A stretch of DNA of 64,000 nt from Haliotis rufescens (lineage: Eukaryota), in contig NW_025963791.1 of assembly GCF_023055435.1 (NCBI RefSeq), forward strand, positions 8,370,001-8,434,000, written 5' to 3'. Positions 641-53,300 of this stretch are shown here, in pieces. Positions within the stretch are counted from its first letter, which is position 1. Each line of letters begins with the position of its first letter. The translations under genes were made by a program, and so were the position numbers. The notes beneath the pieces are model-generated. The model was not told the origin of the DNA. It made no database searches and worked only from the letters and a program-made list of their open reading frames with translations.

Positions 641-1422
641 AGGCCTCGTCGTGGATCGATGCTCATGATCAATCACTGGATTGACTGGTCCAGACTAAAT
701 TATTTACAGACCGCCGTCATATAGCTGGAATATTGGTAAGTGCGGCGTAAAACAACAAAGAAAGAAACAAAATAGTACTTAAGGGTATGTACCTTACCGA
801 TCACTCAGTTCTTTGATTATCTAATCATGTTGACTAAAAATTTAATCAAAGATATGTTGTATTCTTGCTATGAATTGATTAGGTTTACCTTGAGTTAGTT
901 GCCTAGTGGTTCAAGCGTTAGCTCTCAATGCCAAAACCCAGAGTTCGATCCCTAATATACACAACACGTTAAGACCTATTTTCGATGGCCCCGATATTGC
1001 TTGAACACTGCTAAAATGAAGCAATGTCACACTCAACCCATGCATGGATGGATGAACGGTATGGCTTATTCGTGAAGTGTGATGATACTGATGCCTTACA
1101 TATTAATGTTGATAGATATCTTGTGTCTGTGTTTCCCTGTGGGGATTCCGGGTTAGAAAATGTCCCAGCAACAAGCGCTGGTCGTAAGAGGCGACAAACT
1201 GCATTGTTGATTGTGTGTCATCGTATCATAAGGCTTACAATATCAATCACTGACTTTACAGGCCGTCGTCATATAGCTGGACTTTTGCTTAGTGCAGCGT
1301 TAAACAACAAACAAACATAACTTGCAGCTACTGAACACAAACAGTTGTAAAGAAATAACAAAGACATTGCTTTTAAACTATAACAATTGTTATTTGATCA
1401 ACAAAATGAACATTAAATAACA

Positions 1423-2187
1423 TTAACATTTGTTTCTTCTGAACAGTTTTGTAAAACGGCGAAAGAAAGATTTTGACTTTTGTACATTTTGTTTCTGATT
1501 ACAAATTTCTATAAAATTGGTTGTGCTTGATGACATATGTTCCCTTGATGACAGACTACTTTGAGAGAGTTCATGATGTCTTGTTGACCTTTTGTCTTGT
1601 TCACGAGGTATGTCATTCTTTGATTGGACAATGTGGTCAAAGCACGTGGTCTGTGTAGCTCCTGACCTCTGAACAAGTCCAACACCCTCTCCCTCTCCTG
1701 AATGTACACACAGTCTTTCAACTCTCAACATGTCCACCTCTTTCACCAAGCGATCCACATGCTCCCTGAAGGAGACTTTCTCCTCCGAGAGTTGTCTGGC
1801 TTGTCTCTGAAGATGTTGGTTCTTCAGTTTCAGACATTGGGAACGGAGTCGTGCATCTCGTAGGTCAGCCCGGAGAATGTCCACATCAACCAGGACAGCC
1901 GTCAGCTGCATGTGGAGGTCGAGCTCTTTACCAAGTTGTTTGTCCTTTTTACTACAGTCCCATTGGAATGGTGGCTCGGGGCGAATAGGTCTTGGTTTTA
2001 TTGTGACGTGTCTGGGAACCAAATCGTGGAACTCTGAAATTGCAATAATCGAATTTAGTATATAATCAACTCTATGGTAAGTCTGAAACATTTACCCTGT
2101 TAAATAGATAAACTGGCAGAGAAATGACAGTTAATACATACTTTTTTAAACGAAGTTGCATGGATATGAGAGTTGAAATCACCCACG

Positions 2188-2220
<33 letters not shown>

Positions 2221-2649
2221 CAGATATAGACACACACACACACACCTATTGGTTCTGTAGGTGCAAAACACTCCGCCACCTCGGAATCAAACCCCTCACA
2301 CTCGGACACGGTCAGACCCCTTGGGACTGGTCTTGGTTTTATTGTGACGTGTTCGGGAACCGAATCATGAAACTCTGAAATAAAAATAACCGGATTTAGT
2401 ATTGAATCAATTAGACTGGCAAGTTTGAAAGTAATACCGCATATACATGTACGTATAAAATTAAGGAAGTTGTAAAAATACAGTGGCTGATTCTAAAACC
2501 CTTTTCAATTGAAACAGAAGTTAAAGAGTTGAACTCTGTTAAAATATATAACGGCACACACCTTTCGGTTCTGTACGTGAAAAACACTCCGCCACCTCGG
2601 AATCAAAGCCCTCACACTCGGACATGGTCAGACGTCTTGTGGCTGGCAT
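1423..2649 (-). CDS. Orphan coiled-coil protein, amplicon copy A (3 coding exons: 2649-2562, 2374-2246, 2033-1423; 275 aa)
   Basis: ATG at 2649 (MPATRRLTMSECEGF...). GT donors at 2561 and 2245, tttcAG acceptors before 2374 and 2033, both introns phase 1. Exon lengths 88+129+611=828 nt with an open frame. The same structure is conserved in 4 copies. The ORF-track start at 2091 lies in intron 2. Confidence 0.75.
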
Positions 2650-2728
2650 TATTCTTCGATAATCTCGATAAATGAAGAGCGTACTGCAGTGCTGCTGTAG
2701 CTTGCTGAGACAATGTCAGACAATGGCG

Positions 2729-2757
2729 TGACGTCACAATATCGCCTAATGACGTCA
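2729..2757. promoter_or_regulatory. Double CRE (TGACGTCA x2, 21-bp spacing) upstream of copy A
   Basis: TGACGTCA at 2729-2736 and 2750-2757, ~80-110 bp upstream of the ATG. Confidence 0.65.
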
Positions 2758-3695
2758 TAGCGACGTCTAGTCGGTAGATTTCGCTGTCGTCCGTTCGGTG
2801 GAAGTACCTTCAGAACAGGTCGATATATTTCTTTGTGAGTGTGTTCCGATTGCTACACATCAGCCGAGACATACCATCATTGGATGCTCTTTGTTCTTTG
2901 GTATAATGTCATCAAAACAAGCATCATATCATGGGCTAATATTAAAAAGATAATTAACAATCTAAATTCAAAAGCCGCAAAAGGTATTGTCTATATTTCC
3001 ATGTTTTTTTTCTCAAATGAATTTCGTTTTCGGAAGAGGTTTATTTTTATATTGTGAGCTATGTGATATTGTCATCAGTGGTTAGGCTTTTCACAACTGT
3101 CTATATATCTGTAAATCTATTCTTGCGCAGGAAAGCAACAGGGAAATAATTTGGTCAGCACCAAATTAAAATGTTTGAAATAAATGATTGGGTGTTGAAA
3201 AGAACATTCTGTGTAACAGGTAAAATGAGTGAGTGAGGTAGTTTTAACGGCACCCTGAGCACTATTTCTGTTAAATAACGGCGTGTCTATGAATGTTTAT
3301 TCCCAAAGTTTGGAAAGATGAGATCTCAGCATCGCTTCTAACTTCATACCTACATGCACGACACTGAGTGGCTGAAATACGGAAAGTTGTACATCCTCCC
3401 AACTGCCTTTTGATTCAATTATACAAGTGAGAAATACGTGGAACTGTTTTTTCTGTTCACCTTTTTAGACTGACTCGTAGTTCATGATTATAGTAGATGG
3501 CCCAGTTGTCATGGGTACGGTAAGACGCTGTGCAACCATGCTTCCTTAGCATATGTAGCATATGCAGCTACGATACTCTGGACGTTGGTTCTTGGTTTGT
3601 CAGCACCATACGATAGGCCGGAGGATTCTCACTTTGTTTATCAATAGTTTTCAATGTTTGCAATTACAAAAAAAAACTGGTTCTTGAACTCTTAA

Positions 3696-6600: not shown

Positions 6601-8819
6601 CCTTATTCAAAACTGTGAAGTGTATTTGTGTGGGTGATGTATTTTAAATTTTATTCGACTTCAAAGTGAGGGTTGTAGAGGAAGGACATATATGTCCCAC
6701 TCTCCTACCCAGAGTTCCATGCGGCCGGTAGCCAGCTAGCATAGTACCTCTGCCACAGGCCAGCGCCATGTGACGATTCGTCACATCTTTCACAGCCCAT
6801 TCAAGATATTGCATATGCTTTTCATCCGTTTCATGTTTGACAAGTCTACACATTTTCATAAACAAATGTCAAATAATGGTTAACTTTCATTGAGAAAGTA
6901 TGCAAATACTTAAAAATCTACTTGTTTTTGCGTAGTTATCCTATGTTTGCATTGGTTGTACGGCTCCACGTGCTGTCATCGAAGCCCAACGGAGAGCTAG
7001 CGACACGGTCACTTTGATGCATAAATATATATTGTCATACAACTCACTGTCGCAGTTGTAGTAGCATATCTATATAGTTATGCAAAACAATATGTAAAGC
7101 GCCCCCAAATACTTGCATTAGTCGGTTCTATACTGATTTCTGAAAAAGCGCGTTTGTTTACAAACAAGAGAAAAGTCCGGTCACGTGATATGCAAATTAG
7201 CCTGATATACACACAACGACAAAACGAAACAAGGTAACAATTTGAACACATTTCGGCCAAATCCAACTGTTTAATTTGTGGAAGAGGGTCCAAGTCGGAG
7301 AGGCCTCCAAGCACTGATATGGAAAGTAATCCCGCTTGGCTACTGCCCGCAATTTATATCTCCAAAGTTGCCAAACCTTGTAAAATGCCTTATCTACGGC
7401 ACAGTTAGATGCTGATTTTCAGTATATTCAGACTATTATTTTAATAATGATAGATATTATCCCAGTAGTTTCTCCAGATTCCCGATGGTTAATTTTGACA
7501 AGATCGCCGAATGACAAGGGCGACGCCATGTTTGTTTATTTACAGTGAAAGTAGTCCCTACTTGACCTCTGATATTTGCATCTCTATCCGCGTATAACCC
7601 CAACTGATATCCTTTTAATCCGTTGGCTTTATCCTGCCGAGAAAGCCACCCATTACATGATAAAAACCGATATCTTTATAATGATGATTGAGTATAATAA
7701 GATAGTAAGCACATTTGAAGTATTTTTTACATTGGAACATTCATTGTCTAGCGTTCCTGGAAATACGATTATTCATCATAAATAAATATGATAATGTGCA
7801 TATATATCCTTCTGTTGGAATATGTTGACCATAATCTACTTTTCGTATTCATTTAATTACCACACAGTTTGCAATAATTGCAATAACAATACAAACTAGG
7901 TCTTTCGCTCTTAACGTGACCCTTAGGGGTACGGGTGGGCGATTGTCAAAGGCGCTGCAATATTCCCTATCCACTCGTGTTATAATCCGATAATCGTGGG
8001 CTCGAATCACAGGTTCATAGTCGTGCTCGTGGGTTTCACCAAAGTGACAAATCACCTGCATCACTTTGGGCGTAACTGAAATGCTGTTTAAAACGCCCTT
8101 GAAACCAACTCTACAATATTACGTGTGTGTCGGTCACAATGTGTCAGACTATTGAATACTTTTATTGAACTTGTATAGTGCATGCGATTTTTGTCTGTGA
8201 ATGTCATAGGAGTAAACTTGAATGACACACGTGTTCATTAACCTAAACAATGTGGGTATCAATTCTTCCCATGAGAATTATGTTTATTCCATAACATTGT
8301 TAGATCCTCCTGTACAGATGTCCAGGGCCCCGTTTCACAAAGCGATCTTAGCACTAGGACTACCGTAACTCCCTTACTTTAACATAGACTTACGATAATC
8401 GTAGCATTAATATCGCTTTGTGGAACGAGGCCCAGGCCATATTTTCTAGTTTTCCCTAGTTTCCTTGTCCTATTCTCCCTATTATGTCCGATGTAATTCC
8501 CTACTTTGGCATGTATCATATGATTCTGTGGTCTTTCAGGCGAATACTTGACTTGCCTTTCCATTTGTTTTTTGGGACGAGTGCCACCGGTTGGGTAGGA
8601 TAGGCTCACCTTTTCGCCAACACCTGTTGTCACCTCTATTTGATAGTACATGTAATTCACAAACACGTTAAAGATATAGTCTGAATCGTACAATGGCCTC
8701 GGCTTTCAGCAGACATTTCTTATGATCATGGAAATGATTTTGTATCTTTATTTACGATAGATATTGTTGATGTTTAGTGAAACAATCAGTTCAACTGTTA
8801 CCAAGGCGAGTACTTAAGG

Positions 8820-9080
8820 GACCCGTGAAGATCCGGGTTAGAAAAGGTCTTCAGCATCCCATGCTTGCCTTAAAAAGCGACTATGTTTGTCGTAAGAGGC
8901 GACAAACGGGATCAGGCGATCAAGCTCACTGACTTGGATGATGCATGGCATCGAATCCCATTTGCGTAGATCGATGCTCATGATCAATCACTGGATTGAC
9001 TGGTCCAGACTCGATTATTTACAGACCGCCGTCATATAGCTGGAATATTGCCGAGTGCGGCGTAAAACAACAAACATAAT
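8820..9080 (+). mobile_element. SINE family A (no tRNA head, ~260 bp); paralogous insertion at 13502-13765
   Basis: 12-bp TSD AGTACTTAAGGG (8809-8820, 9081-9092); 3' tail GCTGGAATATTGCYGAGTGCGGCGTWAAAC followed by (AAAC)n. Confidence 0.85.
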
Positions 9081-9740
9081 AGTACTTAAGGGTATGTACC
9101 TCACCGATCACACAGTTCTTTGATTATCTAATCATGTTGAATAAAAAAATGATAAAAGAATATGTTGTATTCTTGCAATGAATTGATTAGGTTTAACTGA
9201 GCTGGTTAAAGCGTTAGCTCTTGATGCTAAAACCCAGAGTTCGATCCCTAATATAGACAATACGTTAAGACCTATTTTCGATGGCCCCGATATTGCTTGA
9301 ACACTGCTAAAATGAAGCAATGTCACACTCAACCCATGCATGGATGGATGAACGGTATGGCTTATTCGCGAAGTGTGATGATACTGATGCCTTAAATATT
9401 AATGTTGATGGATATCTTGTGTCTATGTTTCCCCGTGGGGATTCCGGGTTAGACAAGGTCCCAGCAACGAGCGCTGGTTGAAAGAGGCGACAAACTGATC
9501 GGGTGGTCAGACTCAGTCACATGGTTGATTGTGTGTCATCGTATCATAAGGCTTACAATATCAATCACTGACTTTACAGGCCGTCGTCATATAGCTGGAC
9601 TTTTGCTTAGTGCAGCGTTAAACAACAAACAAACATAAATTGCAGCTATTGAACACAGACAGTTGTAAACAAATAACAAAGACATTGCTTTTAAACTATA
9701 ACAGTTGTTATTTGATCAACAAAATGAACATTAAATAACA

Positions 9741-10549
9741 TTAACATTTGTTTCTTCTAAACAGTTTGGTAAAACGACGAAAGAAAGATTTTGACTTTTG
9801 TACATTTTGTTTCTGATTACAAGTTTCTATTGAATTGGTTGTGCTTGGTGACATATGTTCCCTTGATGACAGACTACTTTGAGAGAGCTCAGGATGTCTT
9901 GTTGACCTTTTGTCCTGTTCACGAGGTATGTCATTCTTTGATTGGACAATGTGGTCAAAACACGTGGTCTGTGTAGCTCCTGATCTCTGAACAAGTCCAA
10001 CACCCTCTCCCTCTCCTGAATGTACACACAGTCTTTCAACACTCAACATGTCCACCTCCTTCACCAAGCGATCCACTTGCTCCCTGAGGGAGACTTTCTC
10101 CTCCGAGAGTTGTCTGGCTTGTCTCCGAAGATGTTGGTTCTTCAGTTTCAGACATTGGGAACGGAGTCGTGCATCTCGTAGGTCAGCCCGGAGAATGTCC
10201 ACCTCAACCAGAACAGCCGTCAGCTGCACGTGGAGGTCGAGCTCTTTGCCAAGTTGTTTGTCCTTTTTACTACAGTCCCATTGGAATGGCGGCTCGGGAC
10301 GAATAGGTCTTGGTTTTATTGTGACGTGTTTGGGAGCCAAATCGTGGAACTCTGAAAACGCAATAATCGAATTCAGTATAATCAACTCTATGGTAAGTCT
10401 AAAACATCAGCACATATACATTTACCCTGTTAAATAGATAAACTGGCAGAGAAATTACAGTTAATACAGACTTTTTCAACGAAGTTGCAGGGATATGATA
10501 GTTGAAAGCACCCACGGCATACACACAGACAGACAGACATAGACAAACA

Positions 10550-10597
<48 letters not shown>

Positions 10598-10998
10598 TCG
10601 GTTCTGTACGTGCAAAACACTCCGCCACCTCGGAATCAAACCCCTCACACTCGGACACGGTCGGACGCTTTGCGACTGGTCTTGGTTTTATTGTGACGTG
10701 TTTGGGAACCGAATCACGAAACTCTGAAATAAAAATAACCAGATTTAGTATTGAATCAATCAAACTGCCAAGTGTGAAAGTAATACCGCGTATATATCTA
10801 CGTATAAAATTAAGGAAGTGGCAGAAATACAGTGGTTGAATCTGAAACACTTTTCAATTGAAACAGAAGTTGTAGAGTTGACCTCTGTTATTATATATAA
10901 CGGCACACACCTGTCGGTTCTGTACGTGAAAAACACTCCGCCACCTCGGAATCAAAGCCCTCACAGTCGGACACGGTCAGACGTCTTGTGGCTGGCAT
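9741..10998 (-). CDS. Orphan coiled-coil protein, amplicon copy B (exons 10998-10911, 10723-10595, 10351-9741)
   Basis: Same exon lengths (88/129/611) and splice sites as copy A, open frame. Confidence 0.75.
10551..10594. repeat. (CA)n microsatellite beginning at the intron-2 donor of the orphan gene (also ~2189-2245, ~15249-15293, ~19993-20009)
   Basis: Direct reading; length differs among copies. Confidence 0.95.
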
Positions 10999-11077
10999 AA
11001 TTCTTCGATAATCTCGATAAATGAAGAGCGTACTGCAATGCTGCTGTAGATAGCTGAAGGTATGTCAGACAATGGCG

Positions 11078-11106
11078 TGACGTCACAATATCAGCTAATG
11101 ACGTCA
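11078..11106. promoter_or_regulatory. Double CRE upstream of copy B
   Basis: TGACGTCA at 11078-11085 and 11099-11106. Confidence 0.65.
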
Positions 11107-14100
11107 TTGCGACGTCTAGTCGGTAGATTTCGCTGTCGTTCGGAAGAGGTCGGTAGATTTCGTTGTGAGTGTGTTCCGATTGCTACACATCAGCCGAAAA
11201 ATACCATCATGAGAAGCTCTTTGTACTTTGGTATAATATCGTTACTTTCTTCAAAACAAGCATCATATCATGGGCTAATATTAAGAAGATAACTAAAAAT
11301 CTTAATTCAGAAACAGTAAAAGGTATTGTCTATTTGTCCATGTTTTTTCTCAAATGAATTTCGTTTTCGGAAAGGGTTTATTTTTATATTGTGAGCTATG
11401 TGATAATGTCATCAGTGTTGGAAAGCAACAGGGATATAATTTGGTCAGCACCAAATTGAAATGTTTCAAATATATGATTGGCCGTTGAAAAGAACATTCT
11501 ATGTTACAGGTAAAATGAGTGAGTTAGATAGTTTTAACGCCACCTTCAACAATATTTCAGTTAAATAACAGCATGTCTATGAATGTTTATTCCCAAAGTT
11601 TGGAAATTTTCCTTTTTTGACGACACTGTCTCGTAGTTCATGATTATAGGAAATGGACCAGTTGTCTAGGGCGCGGCAAGACGCTGTATAGACATGCGTC
11701 CTTCTTAGGCGTACAGACTACTCTGGTCGTTAGTTCTTGGTTTGTCAGCACCATACAATAGACTGGAGGATTCCACTTTGCTTATGTAAAATGTAAATAA
11801 TGTCCCAAATTACCACAAAGAAATTGCAACAAAAATTGAAACATTGTTCCTAAATAATATACTAGAGGGGGGTTATATGCTTTCGGAACACACAGGGGCG
11901 AGGACAAATTATATATCACAGGATATTTGTTTTTAATTCATATTTTGCATCTACACGAGAAGAAGTTTCCTCTCAATTGATGTAACTTTGTTCTGATGGT
12001 TATAGTTGTAATTTCAACATTTTGAATTATATATTAGTAAATTAGGAAACGGTCTAGGGGAGAAACACCCGTTAGCCTTTGCCGATGAGAGTGACTTCCC
12101 TTGTGTTGAATAAAAGATGGCGTAGAACAACGAAGCTCGTCTTGAGGTATACTTCTATTTGGGTAATTGGAATAGTTCCAAATTCGTCGAAGCTTTTTGA
12201 AAAAAAGAGCCGACATTCACTTCATTCATAGATTCATTCTACGACAAAGCTTAACTGTTGGCAGTGAAACAGCTGTTTGTCTATATATTTACATCCTTAG
12301 ACGGACATCCGATAACCGATAACTTGATAATGATGACTGAAAATTATAAGATACTAAGAACATTTGATGTATTTGGTACATTGGAAAATTTATTATCTAG
12401 TGCTACTGGAAATACGTTTATCCATCATAAATGATGTGCATATATATCCTTCTGTTGGAATATGTTGACCATTATCTACTTTTCGAATGAATTTAATTAG
12501 CACACAGTTTGTAATGTTTCCAATGAACAATACAACCTGGATCTTGAGCTCTTAAAGAGACGCTTGTGGGGTACGGGTGGCCGATTGTGTAAGGCGTTGC
12601 AATTCGCTATCCACTCGTGTTGGAATCCGATTATCGTGGGTTCGAATCACAGGTTCATAGTCGTACTCGTGGGTTTCACCAAAGTGACAAATTTCTAAGA
12701 CCTGCATCACTTTGGGCGTTTCTCCCACAAAATACTGACAGGCGGTGACATAACTGAAATGCTGTTCGAAGCGGCGTTGAGCCCAACTCTACAGTATGAT
12801 GTGTCTGTCGGTCACAATGTCTCAGATTGTTGAATACATATTATTGAACTTTTATAGTGAATGAGATTTTTGTCTGCGAATGTCAGAGGAATAAACTTGA
12901 ATGACACACGAGTACATTGACCTAAACAATGTGGATATCAATTCACCCAATGAGAATTATGTTTTTCCACAATATTGTCAGATCCTCCTGTACATAAGCC
13001 CAGGGCCTCGTTTCACAAAGCGATCTTAGCACTAGGACTACCGTAACTCCCTTACTTTAACATGGACTTACGATATTCGTAGCATTAATATCGCTTTGTG
13101 GGACGAGGCCCAGGCCACATTTTCTAAACGATGCCTTTCCCTAGTTTCCTTGTCCTATTCTCCCTATTATGTCCGATGTAATTCCCTACTTTGGCATGTA
13201 CCATATGTTCCTGTGGTCTTTCAGGCGAATACTTGACTTGCCTTTCCATTTGTTTGTGACAAGTGCCACCGGTGGGGTAGGATAGGCTCACCTTTTCGCG
13301 AACACCTGGTGTCACCTCTATTTGATAGTACATGTAATTCACAATCAGGTTAAAGATAGAGTCGGAATCGTACAATAGACTCGGCTTTCAGCAGACATTT
13401 CTTATGATTATGGAAATGATTTTGTATCTTTATTTACGATAGATATTGTTGATGTTTAGCGAAACAATCAGTTCAACTGTTACCAAGGCGACTACTTAAG
13501 GGACCCGTGAAGATCCGGGTTAGAAAAGGTCTTCAGCATCCCATGCTTGCCTTAAAAAGCGACTATGTTTGTCGTAAGAGGCGACAAACGGGATCAGGCG
13601 ATCAAGCTCACTGACTTGGTTGATGCATGGCATCGAATCCCATTTGCGTGGATCGATGCTCATGATCAATCACTGGACTGACTGGTCCAGACTCGATTAT
13701 TTACAGACCGCCGTCATATAGCTGGAATATTGCCGAGTGCGGCGTAAAACAACAAACAAACATAATAGTACTTAAGGGTATGTACCTCACCGATCACACA
13801 GTTCTTTGATTATCTAATCATGTTGAATAAAAAATTGATAAAAGAATATGTTGTATTCTGGCAATGAATTGATTAGGTTTAACTGAGCTGGTTAAAGCGT
13901 TAGCTCTTAATGCTAAAACCAAGAGTTCGATCCCTAATAACTACAATACGCGAAGTCTATTATCGATGGCCCCGATATTGCTTGAACATTGCTAAAATGA
14001 AGCAATGTCACACTCAACCCATGCATGGATGGATGAACGGTATGGCTTATTCGTGAAGTGTGATGATACTGATGCCTTACATATTAATGTTGATAGATAT

Positions 14101-14425
14101 CTTGTGTCTATGTTTCCCCGTGGGGATTCCGGGTTAGAAAATGTCCCAGCAACCTGTGCTGGTCGTAAGAGGCGACAAACTGATCAGGTGGTCAGACTCA
14201 GTCACATGGTTGATTGTGTGTCATCGTATCATAAGGCTTACAATTTCAATCACTGACTTTACAGGCCGTCGTCATATAGCTGGACTTTTGCTTAGTGCAG
14301 CGTTAAACAACAAACAAACATAAATTGCAGCTATTGAACACAGACAGTTGTAAACAAATAACAAAGACATTGCTTTTAAACTATAACAGTTGTTATTTGA
14401 TCAGCAAAATGAACATTAAATAACA

Positions 14426-15246
14426 TTAACATTTGTTTCTTCTAAACAGTTTGGTAAAACGACGAAAGAAAGATTTTGACTTTTGTACATTTTGTTTCTG
14501 ATTAGAAGTTTCTATTGAATTGGTTGTGCTTGGTGACATATGTTCCCTTGGTGACAGACTACTTTGAGAGAGCTCAGGATGTCTTGTTGACCTTTTGTCC
14601 TGTTCACGAGGTATGTCATTCTTTGATTGGACAATGTGGTCAAAACACGTGGTCTGTGTAGCTCCTGATCTCTGAACAAGTCCAACACCCTCTCCCTCTC
14701 CTGAATGTACACACAGTCTTTCAACACTCAACATGTCCACCTCCTTCACCAAGCGATCCACTTGCTCCCTGAGGGAGACTTTCTCCTCCGAGAGTTGTCT
14801 GGCTTGTCTCCGAAGATGTTGGTTCTTCAGTTTCAGACATTGGGAACGGAGTCGTGCATCTCGTAGGTCAGCCCGGAGAATGTCCACCTCAACCAGAACA
14901 GCCGTCAGCTGCACGTGGAGGTCGAGCTCTTTGCCAAGTTGTTTGTTCTTTTTACTACAGTCCCATTGGAATGGTGGCTCGGGACGAATAGGTCTTGGTT
15001 TTATTGTGACGTGTTTGAGAACCAAATCGTGGAACTCTGAAAACGCAATAATCGAATTCAGTATAATCAACTCTATGGTAAGTCTAAAACATCAGCACAT
15101 ATACATTTACCGTGTTAAATAGATAAACTGGCAGAGAAATTACAGTTAATACAGACTTTTTCAACGAAGTTGCAGGGATATGATCGTTGAAAGCACCCAC
15201 GGCATACACACAGACAGACAGACATAGACAAATAGACAGACAGACA

Positions 15247-15296
<50 letters not shown>

Positions 15297-15697
15297 TCGG
15301 TTCTGTACGTGCAAAACACTCCGCCACCTCGGAATCAAACCCCTCACACTCGGACACGGTCAGACGCTTTGCGACTGGTCTTGGTTTTATTGTGACGTGT
15401 TTGGGAACCGAATCACGAAACTCTGAAATAAAAATAACCAGATTTAGTATTGAATCAATCAAACTGCCAGGTGTGAAAGTAATACCGGGTATATATCTAC
15501 GTATAAAATTAAGGAAGTGGCAGAAATACAGTGGTTGAATCTGAAACACTTTTCAATTGAAACAGAAGTTGTAGAGTTGAACTCTGTTATTATATATAAC
15601 GGCACACACCTGTCGGTTCTGTACCTGAAAAACACTCCGCCACCTCGGAATCAAAGCCCTCACACTCGGACACAGTCAGACGTCTTGTGGCTGGCAT
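14426..15697 (-). CDS. Orphan coiled-coil protein, amplicon copy C (exons 15697-15610, 15422-15294, 15036-14426)
   Basis: Same exon lengths and splice sites, open frame; closest to copy B. Confidence 0.75.
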
Positions 15698-15776
15698 AAT
15701 GCTTCGATAATCTCGATAAAATAAGAGCGTACTGCAGTTCTGCTGTAGATAGCTGAAGGTATGTCAGACAATGGCG

Positions 15777-15805
15777 TGACGTCACAATATCAGCTAATGA
15801 CGTCA
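15777..15805. promoter_or_regulatory. Double CRE upstream of copy C
   Basis: TGACGTCA at 15777-15784 and 15798-15805. Confidence 0.65.
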
Positions 15806-19480: not shown

Positions 19481-19509
19481 TGACGTCATTAGGCGATATT
19501 GTGACGTCA
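19481..19509. promoter_or_regulatory. Double CRE upstream of copy D
   Basis: TGACGTCA at 19481-19488 and 19502-19509. Confidence 0.65.
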
Positions 19510-19588
19510 CGCCATTGTCTGACATAGTCTCAGCAAGCTACAGCAGCACTGCAGTACGCTCTTCATTTATCGAGATTATCGAAGAATA

Positions 19589-28400: not shown

Positions 28401-31400
28401 GCAAACAATTACTTGAGAATATACGAGGAGTTATAATAAAACTGAATATGTTATAGTCTAAAAATAATCTGACAGTCGGGCAGGTGGAGGAAAATTTCAT
28501 GCAGCCCAACAGAACAGTTACCAGCCATGGGCAGGGGGCAGGCAGTTATTTCGGACACTGGAACCAGGTAAAAATATGTTTGTCATAGTTTTGGTCATAA
28601 TTCACTTGTCCACTGAAGTTATAATATCAAAGAATTATATTGCGTAAAACACATGATATTGGCATAGTAAGTCAAACTGGCACTGGGTAAGCATGGTAAG
28701 TATTCAACATGATTAAAACAAATTTGGTTTTCTGACTTACAAAGTTTATTCAGACAATTGCTCTACCTTTGAAAGACACAAGGGGAGATAATCCCGATCA
28801 TGACAACATATGCTCTTTGATTTGATGTTTTATTCGTGCCTTAACATGTTATTATACACAAACTTTGAAAGAGATAAGTTTCTAGTGTCTTGTCAAATAC
28901 TACCACACCAAAATCAACAAGAGCCTTTATTTCTATTTACAGATGTTTCAAAAAAATTGATTCAATCTAAAAATTCTCTTGGGTCTCATTTTATGGATAT
29001 TCCAGGTGGACAATGTGAACTGCAGACACCTGTGTCACAGGTGATTCCAGGTTAGGAAAAAACTGTAGAATAGAGCACCAGAACTTCTCGTGAGGATGAT
29101 CTCTGCCAAAGGCCATGTGTCACACAATCTCTGCCAAAGGCCATGTGTCACACAATCTCTGTCCAAGGCCATGTGTTAAACAATCTCTGCCGAAAGGCCA
29201 TGTGTCACACAATCTCTGCCGAAGGCCATGTGTCACACAATCTCTGCCGAAGGCCATGTGTCACACAATCTCTGCCAAAGGCCATGTGTCAGACAATCTC
29301 TGTCTAAGGCCATGTGTTAAACAATCTCTGCTGAAGGCCATGTGTCACAAAGACAAGCAACCAAGTTTAGGGAGAATCTTAAAGATGTGAACTGGCTACC
29401 TTCAAATTGTTAGCCTAAAAGCTAACCGACTGAACTACTGTTAAACTCAGTGTAAATCTACATCTCGACATGCCTAAGACATTACGGAAATGAACAGAAA
29501 GGGTTGAATAGGTCATGACACTCCAACAACTACAAGCCTAAGGTGTCAGACTTCGAATTCATGGGTATGAATGACATGGTTTTTAGTAATTCGATGGGTG
29601 ATTTTTTTGACAGAAAAGTGTGGGTTTTGGATTGGCTTGTTGTTTTAGGCCACACTCAGCAATATTCTAGCTATATGACGGCTGTCTGTAGATATCAAGT
29701 CTGGACCAGACAATCCAGTAATAGATATCATGAGCATCGATCCACGCAATTGGGATAGATGACATGCTTCAACCAAGTCAGCGAGCCTGACCACCTGATC
29801 CCATAAGTTGCCTTTTACGACAAGTGTAGTCGCCTTTTACGGCAAGAATGGATTGCTGAAGACCTATTCTACCCCGGATCTTCACGGGGAAAAGTGTGGG
29901 AGGGAACACTGTAAGGATCATGTGAATCATAGGAGTGAGTATTTTTTTACGCCGCTTTTAGCAATATTCCAGCAATATCATGGCGGGGGACACCAGAAAT
30001 GGGCTTCACACATTGTACCCATGTCGGGAATCGAACCCGGGTCTTCGGCGTGATGAGCAAACGCTTTTACCACAAGGGTACCCGACTGCCCCGTGGATCA
30101 TAGGAAGGAACTAGGAAATCATAAGCACGGCTAGTGATGCCATGAGGGTGAGTCGGCTTTTGAAACATTACGGAACAAATGTAGCAGGTGAAAATGGCTT
30201 GGGTGGATGTTTCAGGACAGTTTCCAGTAGCCAAAATATTTGACACAACCATTTCATCCAGTTCTCTCAATATCATAAATGCAACTGAAAATTTGAAGGC
30301 AATACCCAACAAGTACATTTACTTGCACTCAAAGGTTTTTGTCACAGACTCTGTTGAAGGGACAGTTTGTCAACAGTTGTGTGTGTGTTTAAATCATGCA
30401 TGAAATAATTTTTCGCGTGTGCATCACATTCTCAAACCAAAACAATAGCGCTCTGCGCAGCAAAACTGATAACGCAAGCGCTGCACAGAACAACTGGCTT
30501 CAGTCTTGTTTTTTTATTGGAGGCAAATTGAAGAGAAAGCTTGTGTGTTTTTCTTATGGGTGCAGGCTAAAACGGCACCTCAGCAAAACGTCACCGGTTT
30601 CTCTGGCGAAAACGGCACCGCATTTGGCGAAAACGGCTACTATGTGTCGGGCGAAAACGGAACCTCTATGTTTAATAACGATAAACAACTATTTTTGTAG
30701 TAATATATAGGGTTTATTTACATGGTATTTGATCTGAGGCCGTAATGTGAATTTCCGATAGGTTTGGTACTCTCATTTCTTCAGTATCTTCTGACTGGAA
30801 ACTGACATGAAAGTTACCAATCACCTCTTCAATGACGGGAGCTACGCATTTCACACAGCGGAAAGGGAAGTCAGTACGGCAAATTTCTCTATAACGGGCC
30901 ATAGAAAGTACGGTTCCAGTTGTCACAGTTATCACATGATACAGCATGTTGATTTTTTTTCTGTCATTCTTCTCGCATGCAACACATCGAAAGGCCATTG
31001 TGAATAATTGTGATCTGACAGCACCATGTTAGGCCTCAAATACAGTTTCAGCTTAAATTGAGTAAAGGTACTTAAAACTTCAAAGCGTATAGTGAATAAA
31101 AGTCGGTGATTAAATTGGAGTAGGGGGCTAATTTCTTATTTGTTTTATTTCACAAATATTTGTGTTTGTAAGAGACGATGTGAGTTTAATTTCTATTATC
31201 TTTCGTCAAAGCATGTTATGTTTTCACCATAAGTTGAGTTGCGTATAAGCTAAGTTGGATTATAGTTGGAGCAGAGGCTAATTTCTAATGTAAACTTGTT
31301 TTAACATCTCACAATTATTGGCCTTTGCAAGTTACAATGTAAGTTTAATATCATTCATTTGACCAAGGTAAAAAAAAAAAATAAGGTGCCGTTTTCGCTC

Positions 31401-44300: not shown

Positions 44301-47300
44301 AATATCCAAACATTGCTTAACAATCCATATTGATGACCAAATTGTCTAGATAAAACAAACATTTAATGTTTACATTCAACCGTCCAACAATAAAACACCA
44401 GATTGACATAGGTACATTTTAGCAATGAGATGATATACAGTGTTTGAAACTAAGCATGAAGGGAGTGTTCATTCAAGTTGACAAAAATAAAGGGCCTTTT
44501 GGGCCCACGAATGACCAAATATGGGGTCATTTTCAAAAGGAGATCGATAACCTACATTGTGACAGCTTCAATATGAGAGTGTAATGGAGGTGTTGAACAT
44601 TTTGATCGAGCTTGCTTCGTAATGTTGCACACTGCTCACTTCTATATAACCTACAGCAACGAGGCATGGTGATGAATGTTGATGTGATATATGATGCATG
44701 TTGAGGTATATACAACCTTTAGACGACATGTTCTAGAATGATCACTGATAGGTAATTGGTTCGGTGGCATGAGCCTATTGCTAACAAAGAAAGGCCTGGA
44801 GTGCTCTTGATCAGGGTACCACTGCAGCAAACCTCATGACCCACATACCACATGTATCTCACACACAAAACTAAATTTTCTACATACTGTTACATCAAAA
44901 GTTGCTGTAATGAACCAGAAGTTGTTATCCATGAAGTTGTATGTTTACAAACAAAATTCTTCTTTCCCCAATATTTTAGAAACTATTTTCTAAATGTGCT
45001 TAAAATCTTGTTGAATAGTCTGCTAAAGGATATCAGAGCCAGTGCAAGATACCAGTCCAGAGTTTTCTTACATCAACAAGTTTATGAACATTTTTTAATT
45101 TGACCAACACTCTGTTAAACTACAAATACGAGCCAAGATTCATCTTGTTATATAAATGACATTGATCAGGGCTTTGCGAAATGGGGCACAGGAATAAATA
45201 ACTCAACCTAGACAACCTAGCAATTCAAGAAAATAAATCATCCCAAATACCTATAACTGCAACGACAGGAAGTGCACACATCGTATACACAGTGAATGGA
45301 AGAGTGACATTCTCCTCATCCATCTCCTCCTGTTGTTCCTCCTCATACGCCAACAGGCGTGCCTTCTCACCATACAAACTCAACATCGTCACGTCTTCCT
45401 AACAACTACACAACTGTGTACAGACACGCTAAGAAATAATAGTGGAAATTTTCGAACATAATTATGACCAACAGATTAAACCACGTGCCTTCCTCCAAAA
45501 GTACTTATCAGGATGACAATAAAATAACCAGACTGTTGAGTCATCAGTAATCACCACAAACAATCTCAATACTCTCAGCAGACCTGCTGTCTTGAGGCCA
45601 CTACACACGGATTAACCTACGGGTGTGCCACACTGGATCAGCTCAATGATTTTGTACAATGTTACTATTGCCACAATATGAGGTGAGGTGAGGTGAAATG
45701 GGGTTTAACGTCGCGTCCAAGTTTATTGCACTTATATAGCGACGTGCATGTACGTATGTGTGTGTGGCTGCTTGTACTAGTCCGGACTGATGCCGATTTA
45801 TAGTGCTAGCTCTCGAGATACCATGCCACAGTGTAACATGAATACCCCACTCAGACACAGTATACTGAGTCCGAGCCAACCAGTCCTTGTTTGAGCCCCT
45901 AATGCCGAGCGCCAGACAGGGTAACAACAAGTACCATCCCTTAACCCTTTTTGGTATGACGCGGTCGGGGATCAAACCCCGGACCTTCCGCTCTCCGGGC
46001 GGACGCTCTACCACTAGACCACGGAAGGCGGTCCCCACAATATGAACTGGAAGGGCTATGAAGTAGCTGCAATAACCCAATCTGTGTTGCTCCCTACAAA
46101 ATGATTTTGATAACTACATGTAGAAAGTTGCCTACTTCGTCCCAATCAGTACATTGTAGAACATAACCCAGTATTGTGCTGTAGATGTTTGGAATACTAC
46201 AGTTAATTGGGTATTAAAGACAAGTAACAGGTTCAAGATTTGTCAAACTGTGATGTCCCTATTTGTAAATTAACGAGTTTGGTATGAGCTCTTTTGATCC
46301 AGACATGTCTGCTTATTGTGGGAGGAAAGTGAAAGAGGGGCAGGTCATTTGCATTTATGAATTGTTTTTTGTTTTTTGTTGTTTAACGCTGCACTCAGCA
46401 GTATTCAAGCTATATGGCAGCTGTCTGTTAATAATTGTGTCTGGAAAACACATTCCATGACATCATGAGCACTGATCTATGGAAATGGGATATGATGACA
46501 TGCATCAACCAAGTCAGTGAGTCTGACAACCAGATCCCATTAGTCACCTCTTACAACCGACCCGTGAAGATCCGGGGTAGAATAGGTCTTTAGAAACCCA
46601 TGCTTGCCATAAAAGGCGACTATGCTTGTCATTAGAGGCGATAACGGGGTCGGGTGGTCAGGCTTGCTGACTGAGTTGATGCATGTCATCTTATCCCAAT
46701 TGCGTGGGTCGAAGCTCATGATGTCAATCACTGGATTGCCTGGTCCAGACTCTATTATTTACAGACCGCCGTCATATAGCTGGAATATTGCTGAGTGCGG
46801 CGTTAAAGAAACTCTTACAACAAGCACGGGTTGCTGAAGACCGACCTGTATCTTCTTGGTGAAACCATAAGCTAATTAATATGGCGTCAACAGACAAAGG
46901 ATCTGTTATTGCGAAGTAAGTATTTGTCTCAATGCCCTCACTAGATCCAGGTACGGTGTAAAGAGGCCTTGTTTATTCATGGGTATTCAATGCTATAATA
47001 TGAGAATGTAATGGAGGCGTCACAAATTGTGATGGAGCTAGTTTCGTAACGTTGCACACAGCTCACCTCTATATAACCTACTGCAAACAAAACTTTTTCA
47101 TGGGTGATGGAGTAATGTAGTGTACATACAAGACTGTGTAGTACTGACAGTGGTGTGACTAGGCAAGCAGTGACAGTAGTGTGAGCCAATGTGTGTGGCC
47201 TGTACTAGTATTGTGCATGTGGCTGCCAGTAATCCTAGCCACACACAGTGCCACCTACCAGGAGTGGACCCTGACTGAGGTGTAGATCTGGCTGGGCTCA

Positions 47301-50300
47301 CAGTTGGTGCTCCCCAGGGGTCAATATTGTGAATGGGAGGGGTGGGTTGAGATGGCCGGGACCCAGCAGGTGATACCCAGGGGTCAACTGGTTGGGGTGA
47401 GGCAGCATGTGTTTTGGGTGCCCCTGGGCCAGGCAGTGGCGCCCCCCAGGGATCTGTTGGTTCTTGTTTCTGTTGCAGTGGCATACCCCAGGGATCTGTT
47501 GTTCCTTTCCGTCCTCCGTCAGCCAAGCTGAACAATTCTGGGTTGTGAGTCTGAAATACAGAGACAGCAAATGTAAGTGTTACACAAAATGACAACAAGT
47601 GTTAGTATTAGTATCAGTGCTGGGTTAATTCTGCTAAATAAGCAATAATTTTGCTTGCTTTCTTAGTATCATTTCTACACAGGGTTTAGCCATAAAATAT
47701 TTAAACTACATAAGAGAGATATTTAGATGAGTCACCACTGAACACTTAAGAGGTGTAGCCCTCACATAAGCAGCATCCCCCAATATGTGTGTTTCCATCT
47801 TCCCAACCAACCCTAATCGGGAGCTCCCAGAACATAAACATTTTCTCTTGTTTTTCTCTCGATCACCATCCTGGTATTGTGCATATTTCATGCATTTATT
47901 TGTTGCACTTCACAGAAGTTAATCCAGTCATCTTCTCCGTTTGAAAGTATGCTTTGGAAAACGTAATGCAAATTACACTTTTCAAAGAAAAGAGTAACAA
48001 ACAAATCAAAACAACCTACTCTATTTTGGGATGGTCTGAAATAGGACACACACATATTTCTTGGGAGGCCTAAGAATAAAATAAACCCGACTTGACACTA
48101 CTGTTGGGGTAGCCTAACTAATACCATTTGCACATTCAGTTACATGACGACACAACTGATCAAATATGAAGGATGAATTCAAACTTGTATATCATACAAT
48201 ATTTATGTTCTATAAGCTCTTATGCAGAAGCAGAGAAAGTGGTATGCATTTGTCAGGAATATTTAAGATTCCTGCTATAGGATTAACGCTCAGATGCTGG
48301 GTCTTGTACTATTAAATCATGTGAGTAAGCAATAATTGTTTTGTAATGTTTGTACAAATCTCATGCATAAGCTTTGAAGATGATTTTTTAATCTTTCAAA
48401 GGAAAATATTTACATTAGAAAATTTATCGTCCACGATTATATTACCCAGTGTATTATAATTCCATTCTATTATGATAAAACTCTGGACCCATTCACAATA
48501 ACTTCACTTTGAGCCCATTTGATATGACACAATGTTAAAATAGTTCTCCAACTACAAACATTTAAGTTTGCGAAAAACTCTGTGCTAAGTTGGTCATAAC
48601 AGATCAAGGTGGTGATGACACATCCTAAACAAAACACATGCAACGAATGGTCCAGGATGTTTACCAAAATAGAAAGGTTGATATAAAACTCTGGATAATT
48701 GAGGATGAAAACCTAGGGCCGAACTGAATAAATTGGATAGATAAACAAACAAAATTTAAGAAAAATGGGATCTGAAAAGAACCTAATTGATAAACAAAAT
48801 TGATCAAAGAATAAAAATTCAAACTAGAAACAGGGATCTGAAGGCGTCTCATTCTAAGTATTATTTAAAATTAACACACAATCTTTTCCATGAGTATTTT
48901 AATAATAAGAATGTCAGCATCATCTGCATATATCAGACCTTTACTAAGAATATTAAAACTAGGTAGGACTGGGAAGAGGCGTGGTGTGTTAGTTGCAGTT
49001 TGGTGTGTTCATAGCTCGTGGAACAAATCATCTACCTTTTTTCCTCCAGCAGGTGGTTTAATGATTACCTATGATTGGAGGAAAGGAAAAAAACAACATT
49101 TTCATCAAAGACAATTCTTGACACTCGTTAAACTGTACATCTTTACAAAAAAATATCATTGTTCCACATTATCACACAGAAAAAGATCTTAAAGTGAAAA
49201 AACATCAGCATATATTAGGCATTACCCAAATCAACCAAATGCCCTTGGTGACATACTTATATTTCTATATCTGTTATCTAAATTCAAACACCATGAGGCA
49301 CACTTGTTCACATTCAAAAAAAACATATGCAATTTGCATGCATACATTCCTAAGAAAAAAGACTGTAAATCATGAAATTTCATTTGATTTCATGGAAGAT
49401 ATAGCACATGTCAAGCAGGTAAGTTTGATACTATTCAGTCGAACCACTATCAATCTGTACTCTTTCATGGTATTCTATGTCTGCAGTCTTATTGTTATCA
49501 TTTGCAGGTTAGCTTTGTATTTCAAGGGTATCGCTACTCGCATTAATTTCATGATTTACAGTTCTTGCCTACCTGTTCCTGAGAATCAATTGTTTCCTCT
49601 TTTTAGTCTGTTTGTTTGTTGTTTAACGCCACCCTAAGCAATATTCCAGCTATATGACAACAGTCTGCAAATAATCAAGACTGGACCAGACAATCCAGTG
49701 GTTGACATCATGACCATCGATCCACGCAATTGGGGATGATGACTGCATCAACTAAGTCAGCGAGCCTGACCACCCAATCCCGTAAGTCGCCTATTATGAC
49801 AAGCATAGTCACCTTTTACGGCAACCACAGGTTGCTGAAGACCTATTCTACCCCGGATCTTCACGTGTCTTTCAGTGTGTGAGTTGGGTATGACGCTGCT
49901 TTGAACAGTATTTCACTTCTTACTTAGGTCACAGTGTGCCAGCTTAATGTGGAAGGAAGGCCCACAGTAACACAGGTCAAGCAAGTTTCCCACTGTGGTG
50001 AAACAAAACCCTTTGGCTACCCTATCCAAGCATTCAGATGTTTGTTTATAAACTTTGTATTCATGTATGTAACACACATGCTAAATATTGAATCAGTCCA
50101 TGTTAAGGCAAATCTTCTTTCTAAGTGGACATGTTCTCATCTGCATCAATGTTAGACATGTTCTCAAGGAATATCTACTTTCAATTCATCCATGCATCTT
50201 GTTTGAAATGTGAAATTAGTCATTTTCAAAAGACTTTTTTCAAGAGTCTTCAAATGGTAATCAGCCACTCAGGAACATGTGGCTTTTCAGTTAGCCTGAA

Positions 50301-53300
50301 ATTCTTTTGCACCTTCTCAGTCTTTTGGAACAGATTATAGATATTTAATTTTTCATACATTTTGCTTTTACCCTGAAAATTATCAGAAATTTGGCTACAA
50401 AATTGTCCTTGTCAAAAACAGGCACAAACCATGTGAAAGCACAGTCAAAGCACTGACACGTGTGGACATGGTCTGGATGACAGTGGGTGTGACTGGCATG
50501 GTAGTGAGGATGGTGTGGGTCCTGTTCCACAGGGCGAACTTGACTGTCCAATGTCCATGTTAAAGTATGGGAGTTACATTCATCTTAGCGATAAGATCGC
50601 TTTGTGGAATGGAGCATGGGAGCTAGTTGGCACGGCCTGGAAGGTAGTGGGTGTGGTCTGGGTGGGAGTTAGCATGGCCTGGAGGATAGTAGCATGGCCT
50701 GGAGAATAGTGAGCATGGCCTGGAGGACAGTGGATGTCAATGAGGTCAGGATTGCACCATCATACATATACCAGCCCTGTATTCGTAGTGCAGTCATAGA
50801 AGGACAGAGGAGAGGACATGGATGCCACGGCACACACCATGCTTCAATAACAAACCTGAGTTAGTCAGACAGGTTCCAGATCATTGTATTAGTCACTCCA
50901 GATGGAAACTTAACACAACATCATCCACAGAATCCAAAATCATGCTGTCAGAATAGTGAAAGAACTCTTCCATTATCTGTTCTTTTCATCTCTATATCAT
51001 TCGGTCAAACATTATAATATTTTACTTTTTAGTTTGTTTGTTGTTTGATGCCGCACTCAGCAATATTCCAGCTCTATGATGGTGGTCTGTAAATAATCGG
51101 GTCTGGACGAGACACTCCAGTGATTGATATCATGAGCATCAATCCAATCAATTGGGATACAATGACATGTATCAAACAAGTTAACGAGTCAGACCACCCG
51201 ATCCCAATAGTCGCTTCTTTCGACAACCATAGTAGACTTTTACAGAAAGAATGGTTTGCTGCAGACCTATTCTAACCCGGATCTTCACAGGGCTATTTTA
51301 CTTTTAGTTAAATGTGCTGCAAACTGGAAAAGTAGTAACCTATCTATGAGGCCAAGACTGAATACAATGGAGTATTCAAACCTCTTCTGCCAGTGTGTTT
51401 TGTTTGTTGTTTAATGCCGCTTTCAGCAATATTCCAGCCTTGATGGCAGTCTGTAAATACTTAAGATTGGACAAGAAAATCCAGTGATTGACATCATGAG
51501 CATCGATCCACTGAATCGGGATACATGACATGCATCAATAACCACCTGATCCCATTAGATGCCTCTTACGACAAGCATAGGTTTCTGGAGATCAATTCTG
51601 AACCGAATCTTCACTGGAGTCTTCTGTCACACTCACACCAAAAGTTTATGTTGTTAATGCAAACTACCCATAAGTCCAAAACAGGAATTTATCTAGTATT
51701 CCTTGGCAAGTGCCCTTGGCAGGCATAATAGGAAATCATTGTGATTTTGTTCAAAACTAGGATTTAAAAAGAATTCTTTGTTTAGCCAACTCTAAAAGGT
51801 ATTTTAACATTGCGTTCAATGCAATAATGTAATATTAAGCATTAAAGACTCTTCTTCCATATTGGTCCTATCATGATAGCATCTCCCTCTCACCATACAC
51901 TAAATGACACCATACATGATAATGGGCTTCCATAACTGATCTGACTTTGGGGCAATACATTCGTCATGTAAAGTAAAACAGGGTTTCTGTCAAATGCTAA
52001 TTAAGTGAATATATAATATGTACAATATTCATCATGTGGCTGAGAAATAAAATGTAGTAAGTGGCCAAAAGGTTATTCCTATGCTATGATTAGACAAGAA
52101 GACATTTGCTGATTTGGGTTACAAATCCTTGTTATACTTTGTCACTCTCAACTTTTTAACAACAGTACAAGACTGCATGTGTTTACTGATTCAGCTTTAA
52201 CATGTTTAAAGAAATACTAATGAAAATTCTGCAACTCAATCCAATGTCTTCAAAACAAAAATAAATTTACTTTTCAAAGATCAATTTGCAAAAAGGAAAT
52301 ATTAATGATATGCAAATTTATACTTAACAATAATTCAAGACTAAATGTTCTTATTCGTTCAAAATGTTAAGGACATAATAAATAATTCACCTTTCGCTTC
52401 ACAAACGAGTGTCCTATTCACAAAACTAAACATGCTAAAGACATTATTTAAACATTGTTTTGAAAAAAACCCATTTTGAATGCTTAATTCATTGTGTCTA
52501 ATAATCATGTCACACATAGCAAAGAAATGTGGAAATAGAAATCAATATTCAAATCAAATCTTTTCATCACTTCTATGACCACTGCAAATGCACATGGAAC
52601 AAAGGATTATCAAATGGTAGGTATATTCATGCCACAATCAAGGACGACAACATAATTCATTGAAGTAGACGGTTAGTTTAGCCTCAAACTGTCTCTTGGT
52701 CAATAATAAGCATGATCAACTGTCAACAATGCAGCATTCTGTAAATGTTATCAACATACAGTCAACACACTAAAGAGTGTATTAAGATGCCTTGTATACA
52801 GAAATGCATTGAACAATGGCACAGGTTGATACGGCTACACAACGGACCAACAATGCGCATGGAGAGCGACAGAGACAGTGTTTACCACATGCAAAGTGGA
52901 AACAAAATAGGCTTACTCTATTGTTACTCTTCTTTTGCTCCTATAATCGTAACAAAATCATAGAAATGAAGAAACATTCCTGAAAATCAGTCTTAAATGT
53001 TGTAAAATAAGGATAAAAGGAATAAGTGCCCATAGTAATGCAAGCAAAATGTGGAAACTGATATTTATTATTTGCATCTTCGACCTCTATACTGAAAGGC
53101 TGAAACTAATGTAAACCGTTTTTTGGTGAATAAGTAATATCCCAGTCAAGTCATTGCGGTCTGTAAATATTATGAATCCAGGCCAGGAAAAGCATCTGTT
53201 GGCAGCTAGAGTGAGTGAGCGAGTATGGTTTTACGCCGCTTTTAGCAATATTCCAGCAATACCATGGCGGGGGGACACCACAAATGGGCTTCACACATTG

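Follow-up and report, generated by a model that had tools for sequence, protein, structure and literature searches.

A covarying pseudoknot shared by Haliotis SINEs, LINEs and RNA viruses: possibly a block to 5'-to-3' exonucleases

By what means a SINE that lacks a Pol III head comes to be expressed with a precise 5' end was a question left standing in 2016. It is raised again by an element of Haliotis rufescens that lies in a 64-kb stretch of contig NW_025963791.1 (positions 8,370,001 to 8,434,000; this whole stretch is called the window here, and coordinates without a prefix refer to it). The element is a SINE of ~257 bp with a ~70-bp head, starting at 8820. A first-pass annotation, made from the letters alone, took the head for an H-type pseudoknot and proposed that it cleaves itself from read-through transcripts, with a nuclease block or a translation element as further options. 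Of these the nuclease block is the one to which our reading tends, tentatively. The parts of the locus are these:

8809..8819, plus strand: 5' target-site duplication (TSD), repeated at 9081-9091
8820..9080, plus strand: SINE of the young subfamily, probably of the LP-SINE kind, as judged against the available parts of PMC4758252
8820..8839, plus strand: P1 hairpin, 8820-8825 with 8834-8839; conserved core 8822-8825 with 8834-8837
8826..8853, plus strand: PK1 pseudoknot helix, loop 8826-8833 with 8846-8853; 6/6 pairs changed on both sides in the 20-row alignment discussed below
8840..8845, plus strand: A-rich conserved linker, its columns nearly invariant in the 20-row alignment, in part because it served as a search anchor
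8854..8864, plus strand: P3, 8854-8855 with 8863-8864; 92% paired; its loop contains CCC at 8858-8860
8867..8881, plus strand: first copy of the P4 hairpin, the duplication of the young subfamily
8889..8903, plus strand: P4 hairpin, 4-bp stem and 7-nt loop, near-invariant; 98.8% paired
8908..8912, plus strand: optional 3' strand pairing with 8856-8860, a second pseudoknot or closing stem (permutation counts below)
8969..8977, plus strand: B-box-like 9-mer in the SINE body, seen in 25/29 copies
9036..9069, plus strand: stretch of the SINE tail similar to a LINE 3' end (35-nt alignment, copy L014; 1/500 shuffles)
9081..9091, plus strand: 3' TSD, matching 8809..8819

The pairings drawn over 8820-8912 by the first-pass annotation are present as described: P1, the loop with its downstream strand, the linker, and CCC 8858-8860 facing GGG 8908-8910; so is the hairpin duplication of the young subfamily, at 8867-8881 and 8889-8903. 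Two of its details stand only in part. Stem 1 has 6 bp in the 8820 copy, which is unusual for the family: 20 of 29 young copies have A-G in place of the second pair, and what is conserved of the stem is thus the 4-bp CCCG/CGGG. Similarly, 8826-8833 is complementary to 8846-8853, but in H-type geometry eight loop bases cannot all pair simultaneously, and 6-7 bp is realistic. The order of parts across families is P1, PK1, the A-rich linker, P3 of 2-5 bp (2 bp in the 8820 copy, 4-5 bp in some families), the P4 hairpin, a short A-rich joint, and the optional strand that pairs with the P3 loop. Both conserved loops, and the linker at 8840-8845, would fit a T-loop-like pattern.

Further heads lie in the window:

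13501..13597, plus strand: same insertion as 8820, via local duplication; 60.3 bits, common flanks
46558..46632, plus strand: independent young copy; 46.7 bits, TSD
29817..29891, minus strand: independent young copy; 55.1 bits, TSD
51198..51294, minus strand: independent young copy; 40.8 bits, TSD
49774..49870, minus strand: further copy; 49.1 bits
33708..33800, minus strand: further copy; 41.2 bits
51546..51620, minus strand: further copy without the hairpin duplication; 44.3 bits
9429..9503, plus strand: older-subfamily head; 59.5-67.7 bits with its duplicates, the 9429 copy being part of the model
1133-1207 (plus), 14114-14188 (plus) and 21060-21133 (minus): the same older insertion, with common flanks

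The four copies on which the shared start had been based (8820, 29888, 46558, 51293) do have TSDs, of 10-12 nt, whose ends fall between -1 and +2 relative to the start; two of the copies, at 29890 and 51293, lie on the minus strand. The older subfamily is real genome-wide, but the three older copies cited from the window, and a fourth at 21132, are one duplicated insertion. The 8820 and 13502 copies are likewise one insertion, within a local duplication of 8001-11500. The duplicated segments are 8001-11500, 12642-16218, 19158-21596 and 650-3210, one of them inverted, at 88-94% identity. Two other features of the window may be recorded: the young copy at ~46559 appears to interrupt the P4 hairpin of an older, oppositely oriented copy (46375-46863), and 45966-46021 on the minus strand matches tRNA weakly (25 bits) and probably heads a different SINE of tRNA origin, with similar pieces near 29950-30140.

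Is the common start genuine, or has a longer head been lost? A first look at the 1.33-Gb genome gave 8738 candidates, of which 40 were scored; local duplicates were left out of the sets of 29 young copies and 56 loci used here. Upstream of the start the 29 copies share nothing (mean identity 0.26), and no tRNA gene was found in 55 loci; longer copies with an upstream tRNA head, the contrary case allowed for by the annotation, were found in neither set. The 29 are the best full-length matches; the absence of a longer head is not an effect of that selection, and the shared start is in part selected for by it. An exact TSD of at least 8 nt flanks 15 of the 29, and in 10 of these 15 it ends no more than 1 nt from the start. 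In three repeat families from metagenomes (7, 6 and 11 rows) the rows cease to agree one base upstream of the C-run of P1. Which base comes first in the element differs among families (G, A, C), with a purine in several. As for Pol III signals, no A box is seen by eye, as claimed, and no B box lies within ~80 nt of the start, but further in the claim needs a qualification: by the consensus we assume for it, the sole B-box-like 9-mer stands ~150 nt into the element in 25 of the 29 copies. Elsewhere in the genome, at G000:C57:2176000-2243000 (L410-L434), an AT-rich tandem array of more than 80 units of ~600-640 bp holds a truncated SINE head with the motif in each unit.

The kind of SINE is probably already known. 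LP-SINEs have been reported from Haliotis, Littorina and oysters (Matetovici et al. 2016, PMC4758252), with a ~70-bp head common to the 5' ends of Nimb-17_LMi, I-3_DR and RTE-9_CPB; those authors proposed that the head is a promoter (hence the 'LINE promoter' SINE), with the Pr77 promoter-ribozyme as a parallel. The elements Hdi_LP and Hmi_LP, as described there, likewise have a LINE-derived head in place of a small-RNA head, TSDs and a tandem-repeat tail, and the length of the Haliotis consensus, 255 bp, is close to the ~257 bp of the present SINE. The present SINE has no tRNA, 5S or 7SL head by upstream identity, tRNA scan or Rfam; its head is homologous over ~70 bp to the 5' UTR of 20/20 LINEs of Nimb/I type (a clade label taken from their APE-RT-RNase H domains); its TSDs are variable and its tail is a tandem repeat. 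It probably belongs to the LP-SINE kind, its identity with Hdi_LP being drawn from length and layout, not from sequence. In figure S2 of the same paper the scallop head has, by eye, the same hairpin and layout, and a PK1 helix that is different yet complementary. The parts of that paper available to us give no structure, viral copies or upstream HDV ribozyme, and the accessible text of Kojima 2018 (PMC5786205) mentions neither Nimb nor LP-SINEs.

If the head acts as a folded RNA, its helices should have changed in concert. Within the H. rufescens family, 56 independent loci comprise 29 with PK1 state AA/TT, 14 with GG/CC, 5 with GG/other and 8 unparsed, and none with the mixed states AA/CC or GG/TT; as AA/TT and GG/CC are two lineages, they amount to roughly one evolutionary event. 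Across families the evidence is strong. One medoid was taken per repeat family or instance, giving 22 groups, and pairing partners were permuted; two groups had been left out, one because it duplicated the young SINE, the other a repeat whose representative was truncated. For PK1 none of 100,000 swaps reaches the observed pairing, in the 22 families and viral instances or in 14 less related groups, and 137 do so for six RNA viruses alone; the covariation ascribed to the H-type pseudoknot is thus upheld. For the second helix, formed with the 8908-8912 strand, the counts are 559 (22 groups), 6,523 (14) and 56,708 (6 RNA viruses); this second pseudoknot or closing helix is weak, and without support in RNA viruses as a group.

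The alignment of 20 rows (A1), picked by hand and in some cases misaligned by MAFFT, agrees. Paired cells make up 81.9%, where shuffles give 70.3% and slid controls 29-46%, and double-changed cells number 47 against 18.8. The observed level is reached by 0 of 500 shuffles; the shuffle does not preserve relatedness and the structure was drawn from the same sequences. Outside PK1, double changes are found in two of the four P1 pairs (87.5% of cells paired) and one of the two P3 pairs; P4 has none, and since P4 and the linker were the search anchors, their invariance is partly built in. The loops of the motif are highly conserved in sequence. A hairpin scan of metagenomes returned 121 stretches from several repeat families, with the linker upstream in 89 of 122 matches. 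Folding z-scores of six motif copies range from +0.6 to -3.2, by single-strand folding, which cannot show pseudoknots. From its conservation PK1 would seem to be essential.

The fold answers to no class described in Rfam, which gives no credible match over the motif in the window, in 12 homolog loci, in four viral loci or in the 8820 copy. The annotation was right to assign the SINE head to no named class, as is now seen for the LINE and viral copies too. It was right, again, that this is not the nested HDV double pseudoknot: the helix order differs, the nested P1-P2-P3-P1.1-P4 arrangement with a catalytic C in J4/2 is absent, and no Rfam HDV model matches over the motif. HDV-like 5' ribozymes (R2, L1Tc Pr77, RTE) occupy the same position, at the 5' ends of LINEs and their non-autonomous partners; here, however, the true HDV-like domain is a separate module just 5' of the motif. 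The Pistol ribozyme also starts with a 5' hairpin whose loop is held in a pseudoknot, followed by an A-rich linker. The motif shares this order and lacks the helix that Pistol has between the linker and the 3' strand of the pseudoknot. Twister, pistol, hatchet and hammerhead models give no Rfam match at E <= 10, a search that permuted variants could escape. The motif could be an unnamed candidate within the data of PMC10690425, to judge from the part of it available. In full-text literature searches, subscription journals, Repbase and Dfam aside, neither the fold nor its viral copies are described; the fold itself, its combination in a LINE with an HDV ribozyme and its occurrence in RNA-virus 3' UTRs all appear to be undescribed.

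It is the viruses that bring the question down to RNA. A hairpin scan of viral sequence found the whole motif in 5 of 31 stretches, and a looser pattern added 3 of 33, for a total of seven RNA-virus contigs (six viruses) and one DNA-virus contig of 212 kb. On all seven RNA-virus contigs the motif is on the coding strand, in the 3' UTR, with the linker 25-221 nt past the last stop and 14-119 nt of contig remaining beyond the motif; two other, related viral contigs break off within a reading frame. The PK1 sequence is different in each RNA virus. Tandem second copies occur in L221 and L271 (27.5 and 27.6 bits), and the two copies in L221 differ by one compensated pair. Pfam finds RdRP_3 with nodavirus or S-domain capsids in L239 and L271, RdRP_3 in L242, a Peptidase_A21 capsid in L227 and RdRP_4 in L266; L221 has a weak S-domain match only, with no polymerase match. 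Sequence 3' of the viral motif is short, and by eye holds no SINE body or repeat tail, which makes assembly chimeras with host SINEs unlikely. As an RNA virus has no DNA stage, selection there acts on RNA; a motif in the sense 3' UTR of six RNA viruses is therefore an RNA-level element, not merely a DNA promoter.

The DNA-virus copy (L258:3953-4027) is intact and lies between two reading frames, ~140 nt ahead of one of 1056 aa. Scanning with the P4 stem partly freed gave no real covaried case among viruses, further viral scans gave no additional virus, and no phage match to the motif was obtained. Weak matches of 15-29 bits (e.g. L268, L375) were set aside as having only the anchor hairpin in common, as were phage contigs L214 and L228, in which the A-rich word and a partial hairpin loop are intergenic and draw no score from the model; these last are possibly a different small motif. 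A scan of genomes returned five stretches, three with the motif, probably host DNA within symbiont assemblies. Motif repeats in two bacterial MAG contigs (L246, L248), of low GC and with few frames, are probably host contamination.

A motif common to distant RNA viruses and to animal genomes has a parallel. The s2m element (Tengs et al., bioRxiv 10.1101/2020.06.29.177030), in the part of the preprint at hand, is also a short motif, conserved in both sequence and structure, that distantly related RNA viruses have close to their 3' ends, in some cases as back-to-back copies, and that also occurs in invertebrate genomes. It differs in being a 41-43-nt hairpin of other sequence that follows the stop codon in insects, whereas ours is a ~70-nt pseudoknot that forms the 5' ends of retrotransposons.

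The LINEs supply the last body of evidence. One of them, at L332:4908-11035 (G001:C4), has two intact frames, APE, RT and RNase H domains, and the motif ahead of ORF1; no TSD was found for it. It sits beside bacterial genes in a 537-kb bacterial symbiont scaffold, probably as host DNA joined by assembly. With its endonuclease as query, the H. rufescens genome yielded 5027 candidates; 150 were scored and 20 LINEs with long frames chosen (L312-L331), of which one, scanned for domains, encodes APE, RT and RNase H. In all 20 the 5' UTR contains the motif, its PK1 sequence being once more a different one, and all 20 begin 57 nt 5' of it with a canonical minimal HDV-like fold. The predicted domain comprises a 7-bp P1 opened by G-U, P2, a 3-bp P3 with a 7-nt loop, P1.1 and J4/2; as far as sequence can tell it has all the marks of an HDV ribozyme, and the element starts at its first G. 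It scores 27.5 bits against RF02682 (E 0.005), below the gathering score of 44. By its TSDs the LINE starts exactly at that G in 13 of the 20 copies; five further TSDs end no more than 1 nt away from it and one at -4, and for the last copy none was found. Another 30 copies, selected by nothing but the motif and what lies downstream of it, all keep the whole HDV domain (28 with distinct flanks), and none of the 30 starts at the motif.

These LINEs (L312-L362, e.g. the putative 57-nt ribozyme at L319:2032-2088, with almost no P4) appear to be a young and abundant two-ORF family, and a literature search found no report of an HDV-like ribozyme in Nimb/I-type LINEs. The LINE 3' end resembles the SINE tail across 35 nt, with a score equalled in 1 of 500 shuffles. 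As the two do not have the same terminal repeats, the LINE is a relative of the SINE's partner, not its proven partner; a LINE with the SINE's exact head and a (CAAA)n tail was not found. Three size-selected small-RNA runs from a related species place 50 reads on a SINE copy and 176 on a LINE 5' end, few reads in all, with start pile-ups on the antisense strand only. In one of these runs antisense, piRNA-like RNAs of ~31 nt lie over the LINE motif at L319:2095-2125 and 2209-2240, 127 molecules having one common start.

One way to account for these observations is that the SINE head works as the exonuclease-resistant RNAs (xrRNAs) of viruses do, blocking 5'-to-3' exonucleases and so trimming read-through RNA back to the SINE start. 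We prefer this reading, though with less than even confidence. A promoterless SINE copy would be transcribed within a host read-through RNA or intron; XRN1 or XRN2, working in from the 5' end, would be halted at P1; what is left of the RNA, with the motif at its start and a LINE-like tail at its end, would be reverse-transcribed by the ORF2 protein of a Nimb/I-type LINE. In the viruses such a stop would yield short non-coding pieces of the 3' end, like those that flavivirus xrRNAs produce, and in the LINE the motif might serve as a second guard for uncapped RNA. A block of this sort would account at once for starts at the P1 base in several families, for the viral position and for the tandem copies; and a varying first base is what a structural stop would lead one to expect.

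The likeness to xrRNAs (flavivirus classes 1-2; class 3 of Tombusviridae and Luteoviridae; coremin) lies in a compact pseudoknot at the start of a viral 3' UTR, tandem copies, an RNA boundary at the P1 base and a possible T-loop; an essential pseudoknot is matched by the covarying PK1. Class 3 xrRNAs stall Xrn1 at the P1 base and have a T-loop (PMC6299227, PMC12397905, in the parts available). The sequence and topology are other, the motif being an H-type knot with P3 and P4, and in Rfam neither the SINE nor the LINE nor the viral copies match a described xrRNA class. Known frameshift pseudoknots do not stall Xrn1 (PMC10321173, in the part available), so an H-type knot alone is insufficient; xrRNAs wrap a ring of 15-16 nt around the 5' end and stall Xrn1 in vitro with no protein needed. 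Other points tell against the exonuclease block. No LINE copy among the 30 starts at the motif, whose intactness there the block leaves unexplained; in the viruses the block would leave only small fragments, of some 85-200 nt; and conservation of loop sequence is more like that of a catalytic core or a protein-binding site, with the reservation that P4 and the linker served as search anchors. The LINE starts would fit a different circumstance, in that a ribozyme-made 5'-OH end keeps Xrn1 from loading.

A second perspective supposes that the motif is a cap-independent translation or ribosome-docking element, the SINE 5' end then coming from an internal promoter or some other step. It would be a 3' enhancer in the viruses, would serve translation of ORF1 from uncapped LINE RNA, and in the SINE would dock the RNA to capture ORF2 protein, much as Alu sits on ribosomes and captures the LINE ORF2 protein. 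Nothing explains better the retention of the motif inside the LINE, behind an HDV ribozyme and upstream of ORF1; it suits viruses of tombus-like polymerase in which the motif follows the final stop codon, invariant loop sequences that a host factor might read, and the DNA-virus copy ahead of a long frame. It gives by itself no account of several non-coding families that begin at the P1 base, and the motif has no likeness to any Rfam translation-enhancer family. We think it unlikely.

The leading idea of the first-pass annotation was an undescribed class of self-cleaving ribozyme, which by a cut immediately before P1 would release the SINE or LINE from a read-through transcript. Precise starts beside unrelated upstream sequence and highly conserved loops speak for such a ribozyme, as does the same head at the 5' end of Nimb-17_LMi, I-3_DR and RTE-9_CPB, which its authors likened to Pr77 (PMC4758252, in the available portions). 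Known ribozymes do occur in UTRs of linear RNA viruses, rarely 3', and in tandem in totiviruses (PMC13725137, likewise in part). The idea has nevertheless lost ground. The motif stands intact 57 nt inside LINEs, and a separate HDV-like ribozyme is kept 5' of it in 20/20 and 30/30 copies, which efficient cleavage by the motif would remove; this argues against cutting at the motif's own 5' edge. Cutting in a viral 3' UTR would presumably take away the end needed for replication, no Rfam ribozyme matches the motif whereas the same type of search found the HDV domain, and the first base of the element, the G at which the annotation would look for cleavage, is not constant across families. Self-cleavage is accordingly also a doubtful reading, of low probability.

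That the motif is bound by the polymerase of the element that carries it, be this LINE ORF2 protein or viral RdRp, and so aids completion of the 5' junction or the start of replication, is quite improbable. It can appeal to the R2 5' RNA motif, which binds the R2 protein (PMC6895275) and is a pseudoknot linked to an HDV ribozyme (PMC6765202), a layout near that of L312-L331, as far as the available parts of these papers go; but one near-invariant motif would have to serve two LINE clades and unrelated viral polymerases. Last, a head acting mainly as an internal DNA promoter, as was proposed in 2016, with its pairing incidental, draws on the 5'-end position, a purine first base in several families and the dual promoter-ribozyme Pr77, and is the least probable of all in the face of strong compensatory changes, occurrence in RNA viruses and a place 57 nt within the LINE; covariation and RNA viruses make a DNA promoter alone insufficient, and a dual role as promoter and RNA element is possible.

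Whatever its function, a structured RNA of ~70 nt is common to retrotransposons and to viruses of different polymerase types, and natural compensatory variants of it exist. On balance, and by no means securely, we think that the motif gives retrotransposons a promoterless 5' end, either as the first exonuclease-resistant RNA of cellular origin (according to a 2021 review, PMC8374639, in its available part, viruses were until then the sole source of characterised examples) or as a new class of ribozyme. If the exonuclease stop is true, it would be a third route by which such elements obtain exact 5' ends, beside internal promoters and ribozymes.
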